A stretch of 64,000 bases of DNA from Coriobacteriia bacterium (GTDB lineage: Bacteria > Actinomycetota > Coriobacteriia > Coriobacteriales > UMGS124), in the NCBI GenBank assembly GCA_963930185.1, contig CAWVLT010000044.1:45403-109402 (forward strand). The letters run 5' to 3'. The notes below the pieces were generated by a model. It had not been told where the DNA came from, searched no databases, and was given only the letters and a program-made list of their open reading frames with translations. The position numbers and the translations under genes are program-made. Below, in pieces: positions 27,441 through 63,355 of the stretch. Each line of letters begins with the position of its first letter. Position 1 is the stretch's first letter.

Positions 27441-29264
27441 CTACGCCTCGGCAGCGGCGGAGTCGGCTGCGCTGACCTCACCGTCGGCCGCGGGCCATGC
27501 GCCTGCGGCGGCCTTGCCACAGAGGTAGCCAAAGGTCAGTGCGGTGGCGTGCGACACGCCGCCGATGGTGACCGGGTAGTCCTGCAGGATGCGGCCGCCC
27601 ATGTTGTTGCCGGCGGCGTACAGGCCCTCGATGGGCTGGTAGTTGTTGTCGATGACCTGCAGCGTCTCGGGGTCGACCATAAGGCCGCCCAGGCAGACCA
27701 GCATGGCGCCGGCGCCGATCTGGGTGGCGTAGAACGGCGGGGTCTCTATGGGGAACATGCGGCTGGGGGTCTTGCCGAAGTCCTCGTCGACGCCCTTGGC
27801 GCACAGCTCGTTGTAGCGGGCGATGGAGTCGAGCATGTTCTGGCGCGCCTCGTCGGTGAGGTCGAGCTGGGCGACGAGATCCTCGAGCGTGTCTGCGATG
27901 GCGATGCAGTTGCCCTCGACCTCCTCACGGCTGCTGATGGAGGTACGGCCGATCGTCATGCCGTAGCCCTCCAGGTGCGGATTCTCGCTCTCGTCGACGA
28001 TGTGGTTCACGCTACCGTGGGCGCAGCCCATCAGGCCCACCTGGTCGGGATAGTTGTCGTCGAAGATCTGGATGGCGATGTCACCCGGCTGGCGATAGAT
28101 CTGGGTCGACAGCTGCTGGCCGGCGACGTCCTCGTTGCAGAAGCGCTTGCCGTCGGTGTTGGCCAGGAAGAAGGCGTCGCAGCCCAGGGCGCCGCCCAGG
28201 GTGTGGGTCATGGGGGCGTGGGGGCCGTCCTCCATCTTGGCGCCGATCCACATGCCCATCTGCTGACCCTCGCCGATGTTGGTGGGGTTGCCGGCGGCGT
28301 CCATGTTCATCCACATGGCGCTGTAGGTGCGGCCGCCGCAGTAGTACTTCACCATGTCGGCGTTGCTGCCGTAGTCACCGGCCGCCATGATGACGCCCAT
28401 GGCTGCGTTGACCTTGATGTAGTTGCCGTCGACGTCCTGGCAGATGACGCCCTGCACGCGGCCCTCGTTGTTGGGGCGTACGAGCTGACGGGCCCAGGTG
28501 CTGAAGCGGAACTCGACGCCGGCCTCGAGGGCGGCCTGGTAGTTGACCTCCATGATGCCGCCCTGGTCGGGGATGAACGAGAGCGTGGCCTCGGGGTAGG
28601 TGGGCGAGTACTCCTTGGTCACGTCGTAAGCCTCGGGCGCGGGGAAGTGCGTGGGCTGCAGGGTGATGCGCGAGGTGTCGTAGGTCAGCGCGTCCATGGG
28701 GATGAAGTCGTAGTCGCCGTTCGTGGGCGCGAGGAACCAGTCGAACGCCTCGCCACTGTACTGGGCGTACAGGTTCCAGACGCGCTGGTCGGGGCGATAG
28801 CCCATCTCCTTCATGAGGTCGTTGATGGCGGCCTTCACGTCAAAGGTGATGCCGTTCTCCTGCTGGACGGTGCTGTTGTAGATGCCGTACTGGCCCGAGC
28901 GGTACTGGTAGCTCGTGGCCTTCTCGATGCAGATGGTCTTGACGCCCTGCTCGGCGGCGGCGCGGGCGGCGGTCAGGCCGGCGACGCCGCAGCCCACGAC
29001 CACGACGTCGGCGTCGACGGTCTCGGAGATCTGGTCGTCGGAGATGGGGTCGGGCGCGGTCAGCCAGCTCGTGTCGATGGGGGTGTTGCGCATGGCGTCG
29101 CTGCCCTCGGCGGTAAAGCCGCCCGCCGAACCGGGGTCGACGGCCTCGCCGTGCTCGGAGGCCTCCTCGGCTAGGGCGCCGGTTGCCACACCGGCCATGG
29201 CGGCAGCGCCGGCCATGGTGGCAGCACCGGTGACGAAGTTGCGACGCGAGATATCGTGGGACAT
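27441..29264 (-). CDS. Tat-signal FAD-dependent reductase (FAD_binding_2), GC-rich paralog A
   Basis: Leader MSHDISRRNFVTGAATMAGAAAMAGVATGALA; DVVVVGCGVAGLTAARAAAEQG; C-terminal IEGLYAAGNNMGGR. ATG 29264 has a GAAAGGAA RBS. Confidence 0.85.
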   Translation of the reverse strand: MSHDISRRNFVTGAATMAGAAAMAGVATGALAEEASEHGEAVDPGSAGGFTAEGSDAMRNTPIDTSWLTAPDPISDDQISETVDADVVVVGCGVAGLTAARAAAEQGVKTICIEKATSYQYRSGQYGIYNSTVQQENGITFDVKAAINDLMKEMGYRPDQRVWNLYAQYSGEAFDWFLAPTNGDYDFIPMDALTYDTSRITLQPTHFPAPEAYDVTKEYSPTYPEATLSFIPDQGGIMEVNYQAALEAGVEFRFSTWARQLVRPNNEGRVQGVICQDVDGNYIKVNAAMGVIMAAGDYGSNADMVKYYCGGRTYSAMWMNMDAAGNPTNIGEGQQMGMWIGAKMEDGPHAPMTHTLGGALGCDAFFLANTDGKRFCNEDVAGQQLSTQIYRQPGDIAIQIFDDNYPDQVGLMGCAHGSVNHIVDESENPHLEGYGMTIGRTSISSREEVEGNCIAIADTLEDLVAQLDLTDEARQNMLDSIARYNELCAKGVDEDFGKTPSRMFPIETPPFYATQIGAGAMLVCLGGLMVDPETLQVIDNNYQPIEGLYAAGNNMGGRILQDYPVTIGGVSHATALTFGYLCGKAAAGAWPAADGEVSAADSAAAEA

Positions 29265-29600
29265 TGCTGCGTTCCTTTCTCGAACTTTCGGTGCGGCGGA
29301 CTGGGGCTCGCCCACCTTGTCCATGGCACGTGCCGGGCGCGAGCGCAACCCACGCGGTTTCGGGCGTCGGCACGGTGCCACTTGTCGATGACTACGCTAT
29401 CCGACCAGGCCGCGATGCGCTATCGACCGAAATTATCCGAGTGCCCGTCACGGGAAAACGGGGTCGACAATTATGGTCGATGGGGTGCCCTGACGAGCGG
29501 AAAAGCGCTAAGCTATGGTCATGCGTCGTCACGATTTGAACGAAAGCTGCCGCGGCGACGAGCACGAGGGGTTGTGGCTGGCGAGGCAGGGAGGACGGCT

Positions 29601-31166
29601 TTGTCTGGTGCTGATGCGCGCTCATGCGCTTCCGGGCGTCGGTTTGATCCACGCTACCTCGCGCTTGCGCTTTACTGGGTCTTTGTCGGCATGATGTTCA
29701 ACTCGTCTTTGGGGTCGGACGTCGCCCTGCTGCCCGGGGTCAATGTCGCGCTGTACGTGCATCTCCTGTCGATACTCGGTGGTTGTCTTGGGTACGCGGC
29801 CATCATGCTCGCTGCTCGCTTCGGGCATCTGAGCGTGCTTCCACGTCGGGCGACGGTAGGCGCTTGCGTGCTCGTACAGTCTGCCTCGTCTGCGCTGTGC
29901 CACATCTTCGGGTATAGCCTCGCTCTCACGGGTGCGCTCTCCGCTATCGGCGGCGTGGCGGCGGCGTTTCCGCTCGTGGCCTGGGCAGAGCTCTATGCGG
30001 GGCTCGGAAAGCGTGAGCTCGTTGGCTACTCGGCCGCGTCGTTTCTCCTTTCGGCCGTGATTTGCGGGGCGTGTTCTGCGCTCGGTGCTTCCGTTGAGTT
30101 TGCCGCCTTGGTAGCCAGCCCCATCGGGATGTTTCTGATGCTTCCACGCGACAGGGCCGATGCGCGGGCAGCGGCCGAACCCGCGATACGACTCGATGCA
30201 AGCGGGGGCGAGGGCTCCAGCCAACGACAACTTGACCGGCAAGGGCCGCAGGGCCAGCGCGGGCGACTCTGGAAGGCGTTGGTGACGCTGGGGGCGTTCA
30301 TGCTCGTGATCGGGGCCATGCGCGTCGGCTCCGGAGATTTTTTCGCGGCGCTTTCCGGCGCGGATGAAGCGGCTGGGCTGGCCGCTAGCGCGGGTGGGGC
30401 CGCATCCGTCTTGCCCGCTCGCACGGGCAGCCTCGCCCCCGACGTTGCCCAGCTCGGGTTTCAGGTTGTCACCATGGGCGTGCTGGTTTGGTATGCATGG
30501 GGATCGTCACGGCCGAGCATCCGCCTCGGGTGGTTCTACAAGTCGGCGATCCTGCTGGTCGTCATCGTTGTTACGCTGATCCTCGGCCTTGCGGAAAATG
30601 TGGGGCTTACCTGGCTAAACGTCGCGGCGGAATGCTGCGCAAGCGTGGTGGAGGTGTGTGGCTGGGTGCTGCTGATAGACGTCGCGCGCTCCTCGCTGAG
30701 GCGCGTGGCCGAGATCGTGTCATTGGGCCGGCTGGTTGTCCATGTCGCGCTCGGCGGCGGCACGCTTGCCGCCCTGTGGCTGGGACAGGGGGAGCTGCTC
30801 TCGCTACTCGGTGCCTTTGTCGTTGTGCTCGTGGCGGCCGGGCTATTCCTACTCGATGCCGGTTCGTCCCCCGTGCTCTTCGACATCGACGTGGCACCGG
30901 AGAGCTTCGTCGAGAGCAACCCACATGCCCTGCCTCATCAGGTGCACATGAGGGCCGAGGAGTTCGCGCAGGCGTATCGGTTCACGGCACGCGAGCGCGA
31001 GGTCTTTGCGCTGTGGATAACCAGCCATGGGCTCAAGCAGATCCAGGAGGATCTGGGGATGTCGGAATCCACTCTCAAGACGCACATCCGGCACATCTAT
31101 GGCAAGTGCGAGGTGCATAGCCGCAGCGAGCTCGTCGATATGCTCGAGGAGTTCGCCGGCCACTAG
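29601..31166 (+). CDS. polytopic membrane LuxR-type regulator (GC-rich)
   Basis: Hydrophobic body followed by YRFTAREREVFALWITSHGLKQIQEDLGMSESTLKTHIRHIYGKCEVHSRSEL. The start is uncertain: TTG 29601 follows GGGAGG and gives a family-typical length, and ATG 29388 is the alternative. The ORF-track start 29256 overlaps the divergent gene. Confidence 0.8.
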   Translation: MSGADARSCASGRRFDPRYLALALYWVFVGMMFNSSLGSDVALLPGVNVALYVHLLSILGGCLGYAAIMLAARFGHLSVLPRRATVGACVLVQSASSALCHIFGYSLALTGALSAIGGVAAAFPLVAWAELYAGLGKRELVGYSAASFLLSAVICGACSALGASVEFAALVASPIGMFLMLPRDRADARAAAEPAIRLDASGGEGSSQRQLDRQGPQGQRGRLWKALVTLGAFMLVIGAMRVGSGDFFAALSGADEAAGLAASAGGAASVLPARTGSLAPDVAQLGFQVVTMGVLVWYAWGSSRPSIRLGWFYKSAILLVVIVVTLILGLAENVGLTWLNVAAECCASVVEVCGWVLLIDVARSSLRRVAEIVSLGRLVVHVALGGGTLAALWLGQGELLSLLGAFVVVLVAAGLFLLDAGSSPVLFDIDVAPESFVESNPHALPHQVHMRAEEFAQAYRFTAREREVFALWITSHGLKQIQEDLGMSESTLKTHIRHIYGKCEVHSRSELVDMLEEFAGH

Positions 31167-31260
31167 AGAGGGCACGCGGGCTGATTCTCCCGTGTCGAAG
31201 CTGTCGGAGGGCTCCTGGCTGGATCCTGCATGTAGGGAACGCATCGCGGAGAACGAGTCG

Positions 31261-31446
31261 CGCGCGAAAAAACGCTTTCGATGGACAAACTTTTCGGTTG
31301 GGAGGGACTTTTGAAGGGCCACTTATCTACAGACGGGCGAAATTGACGTGATATCTCATCAATCAATGAGACAAATGGCCAAACCGGAGTACCAAAGTCC
31401 CTCCCAACCGTGATACTTGTCCATCGCGGACGATTTTTCGTGCGCG
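31261..31446. repeat. about 186-bp imperfect palindrome (MITE-like, or long structured RNA/terminator)
   Basis: The left arm CGCGCGAAAAAACGCTTTCGATGGACAAACTTTTCGGTTGGGAGGGACTTT (from 31261) pairs with AAAGTCCCTCCCAACCGTGATACTTGTCCATCGCGGACGATTTTTCGTGCGCG (to 31446), around an AT-richer centre of about 80 nt. Confidence 0.7.
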
Positions 31447-31501
31447 AGGCAATCGCGTGCCGGGCAGCGGCCTCCGCCGACCGGCCCCCGTCGGTTGTTT
31501 C

Positions 31502-31530
31502 TTGACATCTGCTCAGCAAACCGTTATACC
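31502..31530 (+). promoter_or_regulatory. sigma-70-like promoter upstream of the Met-rich uORF and metQNI
   Basis: TTGACA (31502-31507), 17-nt spacer, TATACC (31525-31530). Confidence 0.45.
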
Positions 31531-31609
31531 TCACACAAGCGCAGGTGGCTTGAACGCCTGCGACCAAGTCGAGAAGTCGAGATCTTCGAGAGCCGGAGAG
31601 GAGGAAGAC

Positions 31610-31711
31610 GTGGAGACCACGGTTCAGACCATGCGAATGCGCCGAATGTGCACGATGTACATGCCCGGCTGCATGCGTCGTGCCGTCCTTTCTATGCGTG
31701 CACACGCATAG
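31610..31711 (+). CDS. putative Met-rich leader peptide (33 codons) of the metQNI operon
   Basis: GTG 31610 lies 5 nt after AGGAGG (31599-31604). The peptide is METTVQTMRMRRMCTMYMPGCMRRAVLSMRAHA: 7 internal ATG codons and 2 Cys codons. It sits about 315 nt upstream of metQ. Confidence 0.45.
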   Translation: METTVQTMRMRRMCTMYMPGCMRRAVLSMRAHA

Positions 31712-32026
31712 CGCTCCTCCGCGTCTTTCACGTGACCTTCCGGCTGTTTCACACAGCTACCGCACAGAGCTGCCGACCGTTGAAGCTACGTCGGCTGATT
31801 GGTGTCTTCTGACGGAGTCTGTCGGGTAAGCGACCTTGCTTTGGCTCGCTGCGGGATACGGATGATCGGAATAGCCGAAAGCTGCCTTGGGAAAGGCGCG
31901 GGAGCGAAGACGACACGCGGCGCTTGTGCGGCTGTCGCCCGCATTGCCTGGCGCGTCGGGTTTACGCATGGGCGTATCCGGCGTCGCTCGATCCTTCCGG
32001 TTCGTCCCCACAGAAAGGTGCACACC

Positions 32027-32995
32027 ATGTCCGCGTCCCACAATTATTCCCATGGCACTTCCCCCTGCGCTGTCACGACCCGTCGCACTTTCCTCGCCGG
32101 CCTTGGCGTCGCCGCCGCATCTCTCGCACTGACCGGCTGCAACGGCGAGAAGGAGGCGCAGGATGCGTCGTCATCGACCTCCTCCTCCGAAGGCGACGCG
32201 GCGGGCGAGGGTTCGTCGGCGCAGACGGCCGGCGAACCAGCGGCCGAGCCGACCATCGCCGACGACAAGAACATCAGCGTCGCCGCCTCGCCCACCCCGC
32301 ACGCCGTGATCCTCAACGGCCCGGTCCGAGAGCTGCTCGAGGCCCAGGGCTACACGCTTGACGTGCAGGAGTTCAGCGACTACGTGCTGCCCAACACCGC
32401 CACCGAGGAGGGCGAGGTGGACTCCAACTTCTTCCAGCACGGCCCCTATCTCGACAGCTTCAACGAGGAACGCGGCACGCACCTGGTGTCAGTCGTCGCC
32501 ACGCACTTCGAGCCGTTCGGGCTGTATGCGGGCCGCACTGCCAGCCTCGACGACCTGCAGGAGGGCGCTATCGTGGCGGTGCCCAACGACACCACCAACG
32601 AGGCGCGTGCGCTGCTCCTTCTGCAGCAGGAGGGCCTGCTTACCCTCGCCGAGGACGCCGGTATCACGGCAACGGTGCGCGACATCACCGACAACCCCCT
32701 GAACCTGGAGTTCGAGGAGCTCGAGGCGGCAACCATCCCCACGGTGCTCGCCGATGTCGACATCGCCTGCATCAATGGCAACTATGCCCTGAACGCCAAC
32801 CTGACCATGGCCGACGCTCTGGCCGTCGAGGCCGATGACTCACTCGCCGCCGAGACGTATGCCAACGTCTTGGTGGTGCGTGAGGGCAACGAGGGCCTCG
32901 ACAAGATCAAGGCCCTCGCTGAGGCCCTGACGTCGGAGGAATGCCGCGCGTTCATCGAGGAGACGTTCGAGGGCGCCGTCGTTCCGGTGTTCTAG
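32027..32995 (+). CDS. metQ: methionine ABC transporter substrate-binding lipoprotein (MetQ/NlpA family)
   Basis: Leader TTRRTFLAGLGVAAASLALTGC (RR motif plus lipobox). NlpA-family body (SPTPHAVILNG..., FFQHGPYLDSFN, AVPNDTTNEARALLLLQ, ACINGNYA). ATG 32027 has an AGAAAGG RBS. Confidence 0.9.
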   Translation: MSASHNYSHGTSPCAVTTRRTFLAGLGVAAASLALTGCNGEKEAQDASSSTSSSEGDAAGEGSSAQTAGEPAAEPTIADDKNISVAASPTPHAVILNGPVRELLEAQGYTLDVQEFSDYVLPNTATEEGEVDSNFFQHGPYLDSFNEERGTHLVSVVATHFEPFGLYAGRTASLDDLQEGAIVAVPNDTTNEARALLLLQQEGLLTLAEDAGITATVRDITDNPLNLEFEELEAATIPTVLADVDIACINGNYALNANLTMADALAVEADDSLAAETYANVLVVREGNEGLDKIKALAEALTSEECRAFIEETFEGAVVPVF

Positions 32996-33154: not shown

Positions 33155-33985
33155 ATGATCCGCATAGAACATCTTGACAAGACGTACGGGGAGCACACCG
33201 ACAACCCGCATCCCGTGCTGCACGACATAAACCTGTCCATCGACCGCGGTGACGTCTTTGGCATCATCGGCGCTTCCGGGGCCGGCAAGTCGACGCTGGT
33301 GCGCTGCATCAACCTGCTCGAGCGCCCGACCGCTGGTCGTATCGTGATCGATGGGGTTGATGTCACCGACTACACGGGCAAGGACCTGCTGCGCCTGCGT
33401 TCGTCCATCGGCATGATCTTCCAGGACTTCAGCCTGTTCCAGCAGCGCAGCGTCCTGGACAACGTGGCGTTTCCGCTTGAGGTGCGCCACGTGAAGAGGG
33501 CCGAGCGCGAGGCCCGGGCCCGCGAGCTGCTCGACCTCGTTGGCCTTACCGACAAGGCAGACCACTATCCCAGCCAGTTGTCGGGCGGCCAGCAGCAGCG
33601 CGTCGCCATCGCCCGCGCCCTGGCGAACAGCCCGCGCATCATGCTGTGCGACGAGGCGACCAGCGCGCTAGACACCCGCACGACGACGAGCATCCTCAAG
33701 CTGCTCCAGGGCATCAACCGCGAGCTGGGCGTCACCATGGTGATGATCACGCACTCCCTTGCCGTGGCGCATCGGGCGTGCAATCGTATCGCGGTCATCG
33801 ACGAGGGGCGGATCGTGGAGGAGGGGCCCACCGCCGAGGTGTTCGGCAACCCGCAGAGCCCCGTGACGCGCGAGCTGCTGTATGACGACGACCTGTCGGT
33901 GATCGCGCCGACGACCGGCGCCAACGCGCGGGCCCGCGGGGCGCGCGCGGCGTGTGCTGACGACCCAGAAGGCGAGGCGAGGTAG
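33155..33985 (+). CDS. metN: methionine ABC transporter ATPase (no C-terminal NIL domain)
   Basis: Walker A GASGAGKST, signature LSGGQQQRVAIARAL, Walker B IMLCDEATSALD, H-loop ITHS. Only about 35 residues of low-complexity tail follow the ABC domain. Confidence 0.9.
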   Translation: MIRIEHLDKTYGEHTDNPHPVLHDINLSIDRGDVFGIIGASGAGKSTLVRCINLLERPTAGRIVIDGVDVTDYTGKDLLRLRSSIGMIFQDFSLFQQRSVLDNVAFPLEVRHVKRAEREARARELLDLVGLTDKADHYPSQLSGGQQQRVAIARALANSPRIMLCDEATSALDTRTTTSILKLLQGINRELGVTMVMITHSLAVAHRACNRIAVIDEGRIVEEGPTAEVFGNPQSPVTRELLYDDDLSVIAPTTGANARARGARAACADDPEGEAR

Positions 33986-33986
33986 C

Positions 33987-34676
33987 ATGGAGCAGGTCGT
34001 GACGTGGCTGCAGGAGTACTTTGCGGAGTATGGGACGCTCATGCTCGAGGGCACGTGGGAGTCTATCGTCATGACGGGAGTCGCCACTCTGTTCGCCTAT
34101 GTGCTGGGAATCCCGCTGGGCGTGCTGCTCGTGCTCACCTCGCCGGGTGGCCTGCATCCCCACAAGGCGCTCAACGCCGTGCTGGGGTGGATCGTGAACA
34201 TGGGGCGCTCGATCCCGTTCATCATCCTGCTGGTGGCCATCATCCCGTTCACGCGCTTCGTGGTGGGCACGTCGCTGGGTGTGCGCGGCGCCGTCGTGCC
34301 GCTGGTGGTCACGGCGGCGCCCTTCGTGGCGCGCATGGTGGAGCAGAGCCTGACCGGCGTGAGCGCGGGGCTCGTCGAGGCCGGTCAGAGCTTTGGCGCC
34401 AACACCTGGCAGATCGTCTACAAGGTCTACCTCAAGGAGAGCCTGCCGTCGCTGATCCGCGGCGCGTCGATCACGTTCATCACGCTGTTCGGCTTTGCCG
34501 CCATGGCGGGGTGCGTGGGCGCCGGCGGCTTGGGCGACATCGCCATCCGCTATGGCTACCAGCGCTGGATGCCCGAGGTCATGGTGGGCGCCATCATCCT
34601 GTGCATCGTGCTGGTGCAGGTCGTCCAGAGCGTCGGCGACGGCGTGGCCCGCGCGGTGGACAAGAAGAGGAGATAG
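33987..34676 (+). CDS. metI: methionine ABC transporter permease
   Basis: Multi-TM BPD_transp_1-type protein. ATG 33987 lies 2 nt after the metN stop. Confidence 0.9.
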   Translation: MEQVVTWLQEYFAEYGTLMLEGTWESIVMTGVATLFAYVLGIPLGVLLVLTSPGGLHPHKALNAVLGWIVNMGRSIPFIILLVAIIPFTRFVVGTSLGVRGAVVPLVVTAAPFVARMVEQSLTGVSAGLVEAGQSFGANTWQIVYKVYLKESLPSLIRGASITFITLFGFAAMAGCVGAGGLGDIAIRYGYQRWMPEVMVGAIILCIVLVQVVQSVGDGVARAVDKKRR

Positions 34677-61804: not shown

Positions 61805-63355
61805 TCAGCGGTGGCGGTTGGGTCTTTTCGGATTCAGCGGAGCATCTGTTCTTGGAGAACTTCCGTCCTTCTTCTCGATAAGCTGGATCAGCTCGCTTTT
61901 GCTATGAATGCCAAGCTTAGTGTAGATGCTCTTTGTGTGTGAGCGGACAGTGTTCAATGAAACTGTGAGTCTTTCGCCGATCTGCGGCAGAGTATATCCT
62001 CGACAGAGCAGCTTAACTACTTCGGTTTCGCGTCCAGACAATCCGAATGAGGCCGCCAACCAAGCAAAGTCGTCCGTATCGTGCTTTTCGGATTGAGTCA
62101 CGAATTCGTCTTTGTGAGCTGTACTTTTCTGCGGTCTTTGTAATACAAGAAAGAACGTATAGCCGATTAGAAGTATTGCCATGCAGAACGAGAGTGCTGC
62201 AGCAAACGTTCTGCTGGCACCGTGGCTCATGACAGGGAATAGTAGGTGGAGTATACCTGACGGTATATTTGTCTGCATGAAGAGGACGGCTCCAATTCCA
62301 AATGTCATTGTTTTCGGTAGGGATTCGCGATAGGCGAGTCCGGAAACAAAAGTCCAGGCGAATATCATGAGGCAGTCCTGTGTGGCGTTCATAAAGCTGA
62401 CGGAAGTGGGCAGATCGATGAAGCAGAATGACGAGTAGCCCAGCAGGCCGCAGAAAATCAGGCACGAATAGAGGCCCCAAAGCTGGTCGGGGTTATCGTG
62501 ACTAAGGGGAATCGCCCATAAAAAGTTAACCACGAACACGAGAAGAAACACGGGCAATCTCAGCGCGTTGGACGTGAAGAGCCGAGAGGCCTCCTGTGAA
62601 GGGGCAACGACCACTTCTGTTGCTGCGCACGCGATGCTGCATAACAGAAGTAAACAAAGAACACCCCATGGAGGACTTGTTAGGTGTTTGGCCGTTATGC
62701 GTTTCCAGTTGCCATCGTAGATCGTGCACTCTGTTGGAAGTAGCAGTAGTCCGCCGCAAATTATCGGCGAAGCTACGGCTATGCCTCCCATTACAACAGG
62801 AGACGCTCCTTCAAGAACGGTGATTAGTATCCCGTATAGCGCAAATGCTCCTGTTATGGAAAGGGAGGATAGGCTTGGGCTGATGGATGAGGTCCGTGTT
62901 CCCCATCCAAGCAACAGCATTGCTGCCCCAAATCCATGAACTACCCGTCCTAATACGAAGAGCGGGTCAGCGGGGTCATCAATGCCCATGATGCTGATGC
63001 AACCGGCAAGCATGGAAACCATGGCAACGATAACGGCGTACCGCATGATTTTGGACGACAGGGGTTTTAGGGCGACGAGGATAATCACGAGGATTATGGT
63101 GGCAAGCTGGGCTAGACGTGAGCATGTGAATGCATCTGCGGCGCTACTTGCAAATGAGTTACCAAAGATGCTCCAGGCGCTTAGCCTGAACGCGAGAATA
63201 CCGAGAGAGGTTATGCAGCAGAGAAGCAGGCGATTGCTTTTCTGCGAACTGATGCCTGTGCTTGCGGGTAAATGCCTGTGCACAATTCCCACTCCCCCAT
63301 GACTGGCAAGCGCCTGCAGACAGAACTGTTCGGATTTTAGCACCACATCATCCAT
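61805..63355 (-). CDS. polytopic membrane LuxR-type regulator
   Basis: Hydrophobic body followed by FGLSGRETEVVKLLCRGYTLPQIGERLTVSLNTVRSHTKSIYTKLGIHSKSEL. The start codon is not well supported by an RBS. Confidence 0.8.
   Translation of the reverse strand: MDDVVLKSEQFCLQALASHGGVGIVHRHLPASTGISSQKSNRLLLCCITSLGILAFRLSAWSIFGNSFASSAADAFTCSRLAQLATIILVIILVALKPLSSKIMRYAVIVAMVSMLAGCISIMGIDDPADPLFVLGRVVHGFGAAMLLLGWGTRTSSISPSLSSLSITGAFALYGILITVLEGASPVVMGGIAVASPIICGGLLLLPTECTIYDGNWKRITAKHLTSPPWGVLCLLLLCSIACAATEVVVAPSQEASRLFTSNALRLPVFLLVFVVNFLWAIPLSHDNPDQLWGLYSCLIFCGLLGYSSFCFIDLPTSVSFMNATQDCLMIFAWTFVSGLAYRESLPKTMTFGIGAVLFMQTNIPSGILHLLFPVMSHGASRTFAAALSFCMAILLIGYTFFLVLQRPQKSTAHKDEFVTQSEKHDTDDFAWLAASFGLSGRETEVVKLLCRGYTLPQIGERLTVSLNTVRSHTKSIYTKLGIHSKSELIQLIEKKDGSSPRTDAPLNPKRPNRHR

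Follow-up and report, generated by a model that had tools for sequence, protein, structure and literature searches.

Leader-peptide attenuation is known, to our knowledge, for only a handful of amino acids: tryptophan, histidine, leucine, threonine, phenylalanine and isoleucine/valine, and more recently cysteine. Methionine control is ascribed to S-adenosylmethionine (SAM) riboswitches, T-boxes and protein repressors. A methionine sensor based on elongation looked awkward because methionine is also needed for initiation. In the Rho-dependent attenuators that use a leader open reading frame (ORF), such as tnaC-tnaA, mgtL-mgtA, the corA leader and toiL-topAI, the position of the ribosome sets access to a C-rich segment near or after the stop codon, and the leader is long and has no intrinsic terminator. 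Here we describe a leader in a 64,000-nucleotide (nt) stretch of a Coriobacteriia contig, referred to as the window, in which a 33-codon upstream ORF (uORF) rich in methionine codons precedes metQNI, the operon of a methionine importer. We consider it probable (roughly 0.65–0.7), from sequence comparison, that this uORF is a methionine-sensing leader peptide.

In Actinobacteria, leader ORFs with cysteine codons 'without obvious terminators' have been described, and no RNA regulatory element was found upstream of methionine operons (Seliverstov et al. 2005, PMC1262725). In mycobacteria, leaderless small ORFs (sORFs) with polycysteine tracts have been shown experimentally to be translational attenuators, in which the Cys tract pairs with the Shine–Dalgarno sequence (SD) of the gene that follows (Canestrari et al. 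2020, bioRxiv 10.1101/834739). The metQNI leader resembles these actinobacterial cysteine leaders (bioRxiv 10.1101/834739, PMC1262725) in its phylum, in concerning a sulfur amino acid, in having cognate-codon pausing as the putative sensor and in the lack of a terminator hairpin. The uORF also holds 2–4 Cys codons, and cysteine is probably sensed besides methionine. The mycobacterial sORFs are leaderless, and at their end a row of consecutive Cys codons pairs with the nearby SD of the next gene, whereas the uORF described here is led by an SD, carries Met codons, is separated from metQ by 280–354 nt and shows no conserved pairing with the metQ SD. Both kinds of cysteine leader differ from it in having no self-sequestering helix.

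The classical attenuators (trpL, hisL, leuL, thrL, pheL and ilvL/ivbL) likewise have an SD-led leader ORF rich in codons specifying the operon's amino acid. Their regulatory codons are conserved and the peptide is not, and the position of the ribosome sets alternative RNA structures. The metQNI leader is unlike them in its amino acid, in its Met codons, which are dispersed (5–7 in ~30) and not tandem, and in serving an importer operon instead of a biosynthetic one. It also differs in the ~300 nt of unconserved spacer that follow the uORF, in lacking a conserved intrinsic terminator and in a helix that sequesters the SD and start codon of the leader ORF itself. Because the intrinsic terminator is missing, we do not file it in the strict trp/his-type family; functionally, it would be an amino-acid leader peptide. 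With the Rho-dependent leader-ORF attenuators it would share control by ribosome position of access to a C-rich post-stop segment, and termination in a long terminator-free leader, with a presumed role for Rho. Its signal would be the supply of Met-tRNA, and not free Trp, Pro/Mg2+ or antibiotics.

Met T-boxes and SAM riboswitches (SAM-I/S-box, SAM-IV and SAM-VI) lie upstream of metNIQ in Firmicutes and Actinobacteria. They serve the same genes and also read methionine or SAM sufficiency in the 5' leader, but they do so by direct RNA–tRNA or RNA–SAM binding without translation, and none is detectable here. No SAM riboswitch or T-box was retrieved with Rfam 15 at the gathering score from the window leader or from the loci of 20 relatives. 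At E≤10, positions 31400–32100 gave a single 13.7-bit noise match and no riboswitch or T-box, and searches at E≤1 in the loci of five further lineages gave neither. These searches agree with the original prediction, made from the sequence of the window, in which none of these elements had been recognized. It had also known of no established leader-peptide control for methionine. A full-text literature search, with most subscription journals outside its reach, likewise found no methionine leader peptide or Met-rich uORF described in bacteria, an absence that is no proof. The odds are slightly better than even that the locus is a Met or Met/Cys leader-peptide attenuator and the first of its kind, reading dispersed AUG codons and using a helix, P1, to turn stalled versus cycling ribosomes into read-through versus premature termination.

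Conservation and coding character of the uORF

The promoter, the SD, the GTG start, the 33 codons with seven Met and two Cys codons, and the gap of ~315 nt to metQ were all found where the original prediction had placed them. The SD of the uORF (AGGAGG, 31599–31604) is followed by 5 nt and then by the GTG at 31610. The seven internal ATG codons (31631, 31637, 31646, 31655, 31661, 31673 and 31694) are accompanied by two TGC codons; the stop codon ends at 31711, and the ATG of metQ lies at 32027. All seven ATG triplets are in the frame of the uORF and none in the other two frames, and the remaining 315 nt of the leader contain two ATG triplets. The peptide had no Pfam match, and nhmmer detected no further copy of the element in the window.

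Met density by itself is weak evidence. Among the ~71,000 stop-free 25-codon stretches in the six frames of the 64 kb, eight contain seven ATG codons, and these are found at two places. The second place (62982–63057, + strand, MPMMLMQPASMETMATITAYRM...) lies in a patch of lower GC, antisense to the gene of a 516-residue LuxR-type regulator (61805–63355, − strand). It is accidental because it is antisense to a real gene. That such a chance twin arises in the same window is the argument for the uORF being a chance product of GC-rich sequence as well, and within the window it is only moderately beyond chance. Judged across lineages, conservation lifts the uORF far above chance: it has been kept in seven lineages with a diverged leader and is absent from 78 other species, which effectively refutes a chance origin.

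Two samples were compared with the window: 80 loci with MetQ relatives, taken from one genome per GTDB species, and an added sample of contigs encoding MetQ homologues at 62–100% identity. A Met-rich uORF was found at the same place in seven lineages whose MetQ proteins are 64–100% identical to that of the window (Table 1). Relatives that keep the leader also keep the uORF. A conserved, SD-led ORF rich in Met codons thus stands upstream of metQNI in seven lineages, supporting the proposal of a leader peptide for methionine. Assemblies that carry the element include the MAGs GCA_048503055.1 and GCA_048229515.1, DBEYOB01 and CAZUFB01 assemblies, and ENA contigs of 0.4–1.3 Mb. Among the 80 GTDB species, the element was present in L001 and L002 only. 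The other 78, which include Senegalimassilia, Eggerthella, Slackia, Bifidobacterium and Lachnospiraceae, have no frame with at least six Met in 18 residues within 1.1 kb 5' of the MetQ match.

Table 1. Peptides of the uORF in the seven lineages, with the identity of MetQ to that of the window
Loci	MetQ identity	uORF peptide
Window / L201–L204	100%	(fM)ETTVQTMRMRRMCTMYMPGCMRRAVLSMRAHA
L001 / L207–L214	74–80%	LETAARTMRMRRMSMYMPCAMRRAVSM[P/L]VCA
L205 / L206	78%	LETLAQNMQRMCRMHAMCMPGCMRRRAGR[S/P]MRA
L002	76%	...MCMLGRMRRRASRSMRP
L215	77%	LETLAQIMQRMCMPMCMPKAGCMRLRTGRSMRVCA
L216 / L217	67%	MAHTAQQTMRMCRMHAMCMPSSMRRSA
L219	64%	MAHAARHNMVMRMCRMRTMGIARCAALPR

Identity of the leaders between lineages is only 44–68%. 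The uORF starts with GTG in the window, with TTG in four lineages and with an ATG three codons further on in L216 and L219. In five lineages an SD lies 5–6 nt ahead of the start codon. The length of the uORF is 27–35 codons, all insertions and deletions are multiples of three, and no in-frame stop interrupts it. Each uORF contains 5–7 internal Met codons and 2–4 Cys codons. Summed over the seven lineages, the internal ATG triplets number 46, every one of them in frame, with none in the other frames. The first internal Met is codon 8 or 9 in every lineage, 21–24 nt after the start. Codon differences comprise 71 synonymous and 276 non-synonymous changes, distributed over the three codon positions as 186/172/193. 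The uORF alignment carries no third-codon-position or dN/dS-type coding signal, so the coding evidence rests on the frame, the phase of the ATG triplets and the SD and start codon. We read the uORF as a sensor because promoter, SD and start, frame and in-frame Met codons have been kept despite the low identity of the leaders.

In the codon alignment, the residues other than Met drift and are not conserved. Conserved Met codons in a drifting peptide are the pattern of amino-acid-sensing leader peptides, which speaks against both a small protein with a function of its own and an arrest peptide that depends on its sequence. A ligand-sensing arrest peptide similar to TnaC or SpeFL, whose Met/Arg/Cys-rich chain would stall in response to free methionine or SAM whatever the state of tRNA charging, appears very unlikely. 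Short motifs (MRMxRM, MCMP and CMRR) do recur among the peptides, and Arg-rich nascent chains can slow ribosomes. However, the arrest peptides known so far have an exact C-terminal motif set at a constant distance from where the ribosome stalls, whereas here conservation is poor besides Met, as the excess of non-synonymous changes indicates, length and C-terminus vary, and the last eight residues are absent in L216 and L219. An importer would also have to be induced when its ligand is scarce, which is the reverse of how TnaC-type control works. Alternatively, the uORF might be a small gene co-transcribed with metQNI, encoding for example a Met/Cys-rich metal-binding or redox peptide. The peptide is indeed rich in Met and Cys and is a positionally conserved first cistron, but the drift of its non-Met residues, its weak start codons (GTG/TTG), the sequestration of its initiation region by P1, the lack of a Pfam match and the long untranslated spacer before metQ make a product of this kind highly improbable.

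The three loci L218, L220 and L221 (MetQ 62–64%) have a short leader and a divergent LysR-type gene in place of the uORF. Compared with the uORF lineages, this looks like a swap of the regulatory system on orthologous importers. In L218 (MetQ 64%), five tandem copies of the 10-nt unit CATGCGCCGN lie at ~730–790, 70–130 nt 5' of metQ, which starts at 857. The ATGs of this repeat do not share one frame, so it is not a coding uORF; it might be bound by a protein or be what is left of a decayed element. When metagenomes were scanned with the DNA pattern CGAATGNGNCGAATGN{3,9}ATGNNNATG, which is too permissive, the matches listed were chance occurrences only, none of them leader-like. Eight loci with MetQ 67–73% identical to that of the window (L004, L006, L010, L015, L016, L020, L021 and L027) are on contigs filed under Prevotella, Bacteroidaceae, Butyrivibrio, Methanomethylophilaceae, Eubacterium or Anaerovoracaceae. 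These contigs are probably mis-binned in the respective metagenome-assembled genomes (MAGs).

The P1 helix and the output step

Folding models show a conserved long-range helix, P1, that would sequester the SD and start codon of the uORF through a C/U-rich segment located just after the stop codon (Table 2). P1 is present in the minimum free energy (MFE) folds of six of the seven lineages, with duplex energies from −32 to −47 kcal/mol across lineages (RNAduplex). In the five lineages that start with GTG or TTG, it is better than duplexes with shuffled 3' arms (z = −1.9 to −3.4). In a positional test, 45-nt segments were slid across the whole leader plus 200 nt of metQ (101–115 per lineage). 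The post-stop segment was the first-ranked partner of the uORF initiation region in five lineages and came sixth and tenth in the remaining two. From lineage to lineage the sequences of the arms change, yet their complementarity is kept: GGAG:CUCC in the window, GGAGAC:GUCUCU in L001, GGAAAC:GUUUCC in L205, L002 and L215, and GAAGC:GCUUC in L216. Conservation of P1 was judged from duplex energies, positional rank and visibly compensated arms; the register of the helix varies, which makes a single alignment unreliable. Against dinucleotide shuffles, the domain formed by P1 and the uORF has z scores of −3.75 in the window, −2.9 in L001, −5.1 in L002, −1.8 in L205 and −1.7 in L215. The C/G ratio at the 3' arm is 1.7–2.0, within the top ~5–8% of 60-nt segments, and the arm is a candidate Rho-loading or termination-promoting segment, with a presumed Rho utilization (rut) role.

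The strong structure of this domain (z down to −5.1) would also suit an element that acts as RNA alone, be it a riboswitch not yet described or a site bound by a protein, in which the frame and the ATGs would be by-products of CAUG/GCAUGC palindromes. Such an element would likewise fit the CGA-ATG units, which are conserved at the nucleotide level, the covariation of one pair inside a uORF hairpin (CG in five rows, UA in four) and the self-complementarity of CAUG. Nevertheless, an RNA motif needs no reading frame, and here 46 ATGs share one frame, only in-frame insertions and deletions occur, no in-frame stop is found, an SD stands 5–6 nt before the start codon in five lineages, and Rfam has no match. 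We regard this explanation as highly improbable.

Arg codons directly before Met are CGA in nearly all lineages (in the window at 31634–31648, where CGA-ATG occurs twice), which is unusual in a high-GC genome. They could reflect a nucleotide-level constraint such as RNA pairing, or a deliberately slow codon beside the sensing codons.

The behaviour of P1 was modelled by constrained folding with ribosomes as masks. Masking the initiation region raised the unpaired fraction of the 45 nt after the stop codon from 0.21–0.41 to 0.35–0.52 in all seven lineages. With a ribosome footprint at the Met codons, P1 stayed closed and the SD of the uORF sequestered, again in all seven. In the window, a small hairpin (P4) that overlaps the outer part of the P1 3' arm has a pair probability of 0.07 in the free RNA or with a ribosome at the Met codons, and of 0.61–0.75 once a ribosome occupies either the initiation region or the stop codon.

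These models, together with the conserved features of the uORF, suggest the following sequence of events. A ribosome would load on the uORF while the leader is being transcribed; since the P1 3' arm is made ~100 nt after the start codon, the uORF should be loadable mainly during transcription. The rate of passage over the Met codons (codons 8–22 and 29) would report the supply of charged elongator Met-tRNA, and the peptide itself would not be the product of interest. When Met is ample, ribosomes would cycle on the uORF, and an initiating ribosome on the SD and start codon or a terminating one on the stop codon would hold P1 open. The C/U-rich post-stop segment would then be exposed, leading to premature termination in the unstructured spacer of 280–354 nt, with Rho as the most likely agent; a weak hairpin with a U-tract may add to termination in the L205/L002 clade. 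When Met is scarce, the ribosome would stall at the first Met codons, 21–24 nt past the start, and the SD region would stay free. With its A-site on codon 8 or 9, the ribosome reaches almost to the start codon and should therefore block re-initiation yet leave the SD to pair. P1 would then close, hide the post-stop segment and allow read-through into metQ. A sensor leader peptide with a P1-based output is the explanation that we favour, and we hold its sensor part to be probable. The specific output mechanism, in which closure of P1 gives read-through and termination is of the Rho type, is proposed tentatively on the basis of these models.

The main alternative for the output keeps the same sensor and makes it purely translational, in that the uORF would pair with the ribosome-binding site of metQ until a ribosome stalled at Met codons unmasks it. 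The original prediction had proposed this arrangement through CCTTTCT in the uORF (31687–31693) and AGAAAGG in the metQ SD (32012–32018). Both motifs are present, and within the window leader the metQ SD region does pair most strongly with a uORF segment, TGCATGCGTCGTGCCGTCCTTTCTA (−18.8 kcal/mol), which includes CCTTTCT; such a mechanism is proven for cysteine in another actinobacterial group (bioRxiv 10.1101/834739). However, the pairing is neither conserved nor supported by folding. Each lineage has the best partner of its metQ SD at another site; the uORF of L002 lacks CCTTTCT, and in L001 the motif is weakened. In partition-function folding, SD accessibility did not rise consistently when a ribosome was modelled as a 30-nt mask on each of the Met codons, contrary to the proposed unmasking: the values in the window were 0.61 unmasked and 0.60 masked, L215, L216 and L219 were unchanged, and a rise was seen only in L002. 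In five of the seven lineages the metQ SD is predicted to be ~60% unpaired whether or not the Met codons are masked. In addition, the gap between uORF and metQ is far above that of the mycobacterial cases. A translational output of this type is accordingly unlikely, and the CCTTTCT:AGAAAGG pairing as a regulatory element was rejected as a coincidence of one lineage, since neither its position nor its sequence is conserved and the masks had no consistent effect.

The spacer was also searched for other output elements. Terminator scans found no T-runs of at least four and no hairpin followed by a T-run in the window between 31712 and 32026, and no intrinsic terminator between uORF and metQ was conserved among the seven lineages. 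A weak 5-bp hairpin followed by T4–6 was detected downstream of the uORF in L205, L206 and L002 only. A classical terminator/antiterminator was ruled out, as none is conserved and the hairpin and U-tract of L205/L002 did not form in any modelled ribosome state. Outside the uORF domain and the metQ SD, the seven lineages share no conserved blocks. Without the P1 and uORF domain, the spacers (230–304 nt) have z scores between −1.8 and +0.6 against dinucleotide shuffles, near zero in five of the seven; as these energies are close to those of shuffled controls, the spacer has no riboswitch-like fold. A hidden structured RNA or riboswitch in the spacer was rejected on these two grounds. In the first 80 nt after the uORF stop, C exceeds G in all seven lineages (30 C and 18 G in the window).

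Several points weigh against the favoured explanation. The sequences are all those of uncultured MAGs or of contigs from metagenomes, and the evidence is computational throughout. One locus was inspected per genome, hence there is no regulon-level support. The seven lineages are related, so that the features they conserve do not count as separate events. The spacing between SD and ATG in L216 and L219 (11–13 nt) is long, and P1 is not better there than duplexes with shuffled 3' arms. The conservation of the CGA-ATG units and the covarying pair indicate some constraint on the RNA and not on the codons alone. A shortage of methionine lowers initiator fMet-tRNA as well, a complication for a sensor that works through elongation alone. 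With regard to the output, the structure that would execute the decision made by P1 is not conserved among lineages, and the P4 hairpin switch was not reproduced in the other lineages. C exceeds G in the spacer of six of the seven lineages, the exception being the window (C 0.30, G 0.32), where only the 80 nt after the stop codon and the last 60 nt are C-rich. No conserved terminator was found for the output step, which we only infer.

Leader anatomy, operon and genomic surroundings

The features of the leader and the operon are listed in Table 2. From the position of the promoter, transcription is predicted to start at ~31537. In all seven lineages a promoter of the form CTTGAC[A/G]-17-TATA[C/T][C/A] lies 72–121 nt 5' of the uORF start. 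The predicted 5' untranslated region ahead of the uORF is ~36–72 nt and carries an SD, so the uORF is not leaderless. The terminator-like hairpin that abuts the −35 box would probably shield the leader from transcription coming from the LuxR-family gene upstream (29256–31166). Hairpins of other sequence occupy the stop-proximal place of the palindromic hairpin in L001, L215, L205 and L002. The gap between uORF and metQ is 315 nt in the window.

Table 2. Coordinates of leader and operon features in the window
Feature	Position	Strand	Basis or remark
GC-rich hairpin, then TTGTTTCTT, abutting the −35 box	31478–31497	+	Terminator scan
Sigma-70-like promoter: TTGACA (31502–31507), 17-nt spacer, TATACC (31525–31530)	31502–31530	+	Sequence
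5'-terminal leader stem-loop, CGCAGG...CCTGCG	31540–31562	+	MFE fold of the window
P1 5' arm: SD of the uORF, GTG start and codon 2	31587–31616	+	RNAduplex −38.3 kcal/mol with 31716–31749
Leader ORF, 33 codons, GTG start, TAG stop	31610–31711	+	Peptide (V/fM)ETTVQTMRMRRMCTMYMPGCMRRAVLSMRAHA, then stop
Met-codon cluster, putative regulatory codons	31631–31696	+	ATG columns conserved in the codon alignment; stop-proximal ATG at 31694
Perfect palindromic hairpin TATGCGTGCACACGCATA spanning the last Met codon and the stop	31693–31710	+	Sequence, MFE
P1 3' arm: C/U-rich anti-SD-like segment CCTCCGCGTCTTTC...CCTTCCGGCT, from 5 nt past the stop	31716–31749	+	Top partner of the initiation region among 109 segments
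P4, small hairpin GCTGT-TTCAC-ACAGC, overlapping the outer P1 3' arm, without U-tract	31743–31757	+	Folding
Spacer between post-stop segment and metQ SD	31750–32011	+	Unconserved sequence; structure z = +0.28 against shuffles
metQ SD, AGAAAGG	32012–32018	+	Block CAGAAAGGT kept in all lineages
metQ: lipoprotein with twin-arginine translocation (Tat) signal, methionine-binding protein of the NlpA/MetQ family	32027–32995	+	Pfam PF03180 (Lipoprotein_9), E = 1.7e-83; best NCBIfam matches MetQ/NlpA
metN: ATP-binding cassette (ABC) ATPase, 276 residues, without C-terminal NIL (C2) domain	33155–33985	+	Profile matches
metI: permease	33987–34676	+	NCBIfam PRK10782 MetI, 231 bits against a cut-off of 212

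MetN aligns only to positions 1–241 of the 343-position ABC_MetN model, and no NIL match was found in it even at E≤10. The NIL trans-inhibition domain is therefore missing, as had been noticed in the original prediction. The longest ORF of metI starts at 33954; in the identical locus L201, the called gene begins at the equivalent of 33987.

The frame of metQ is open far 5' of the annotated ATG, over 31799–32026 (76 codons) in the window and over the entire spacer in L001 (2587–2919); it is closed in L002. This extension is most likely an accident of GC-rich sequence, because the Tat signal begins directly behind the annotated ATG, where the SD is conserved too.

On the opposite strand, gene callers report an ORF of 180 residues over the leader and the uORF (31163–31705, −). 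Counterparts of 180–262 residues were found in L201 (637–1179), L208 (702–1277), L211 (532–1320) and L212 (640–1320), and none in L216 or L219. The His-rich start of this ORF is the complement of the Met codons of the uORF. As a gene it was rejected and is probably spurious, given the lack of a Pfam match, an extent that varies between lineages and its absence from L216 and L219.

The GC content of the window is 58%, and its nearest relatives are Coriobacteriia MAGs. Tat-signal flavoprotein reductases and membrane regulators of the LuxR type are encoded by its neighbouring genes. One such reductase, FAD-dependent and with a Tat signal (27441–29381, −), adjoins a multi-pass membrane LuxR-family regulator (29256–31166, +), and a second multi-pass LuxR-type membrane regulator is encoded at 61805–63355. 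Eggerthellaceae-like genomes typically show this pairing of a reductase with a LuxR-family regulator. In the whole window, Rfam at the gathering score matched one tRNA gene (2096–2168, +; 67.3 bits) and nothing else.

Implications for methionine regulation

If the uORF is a methionine-sensing leader peptide, ribosome-based sensing would extend to methionine, a matter of interest for research on attenuation and on sulfur amino acid regulation. For annotation, we suggest that long leaders without a riboswitch in high-GC genomes be examined for amino-acid-biased uORFs; in such leaders, gene callers place spurious antisense ORFs. The self-sequestering design of P1 may be a general route to a one-shot, co-transcriptional leader-ORF sensor. 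In a group of gut Coriobacteriia, such a leader peptide would explain how a MetNIQ importer without the NIL domain is regulated.

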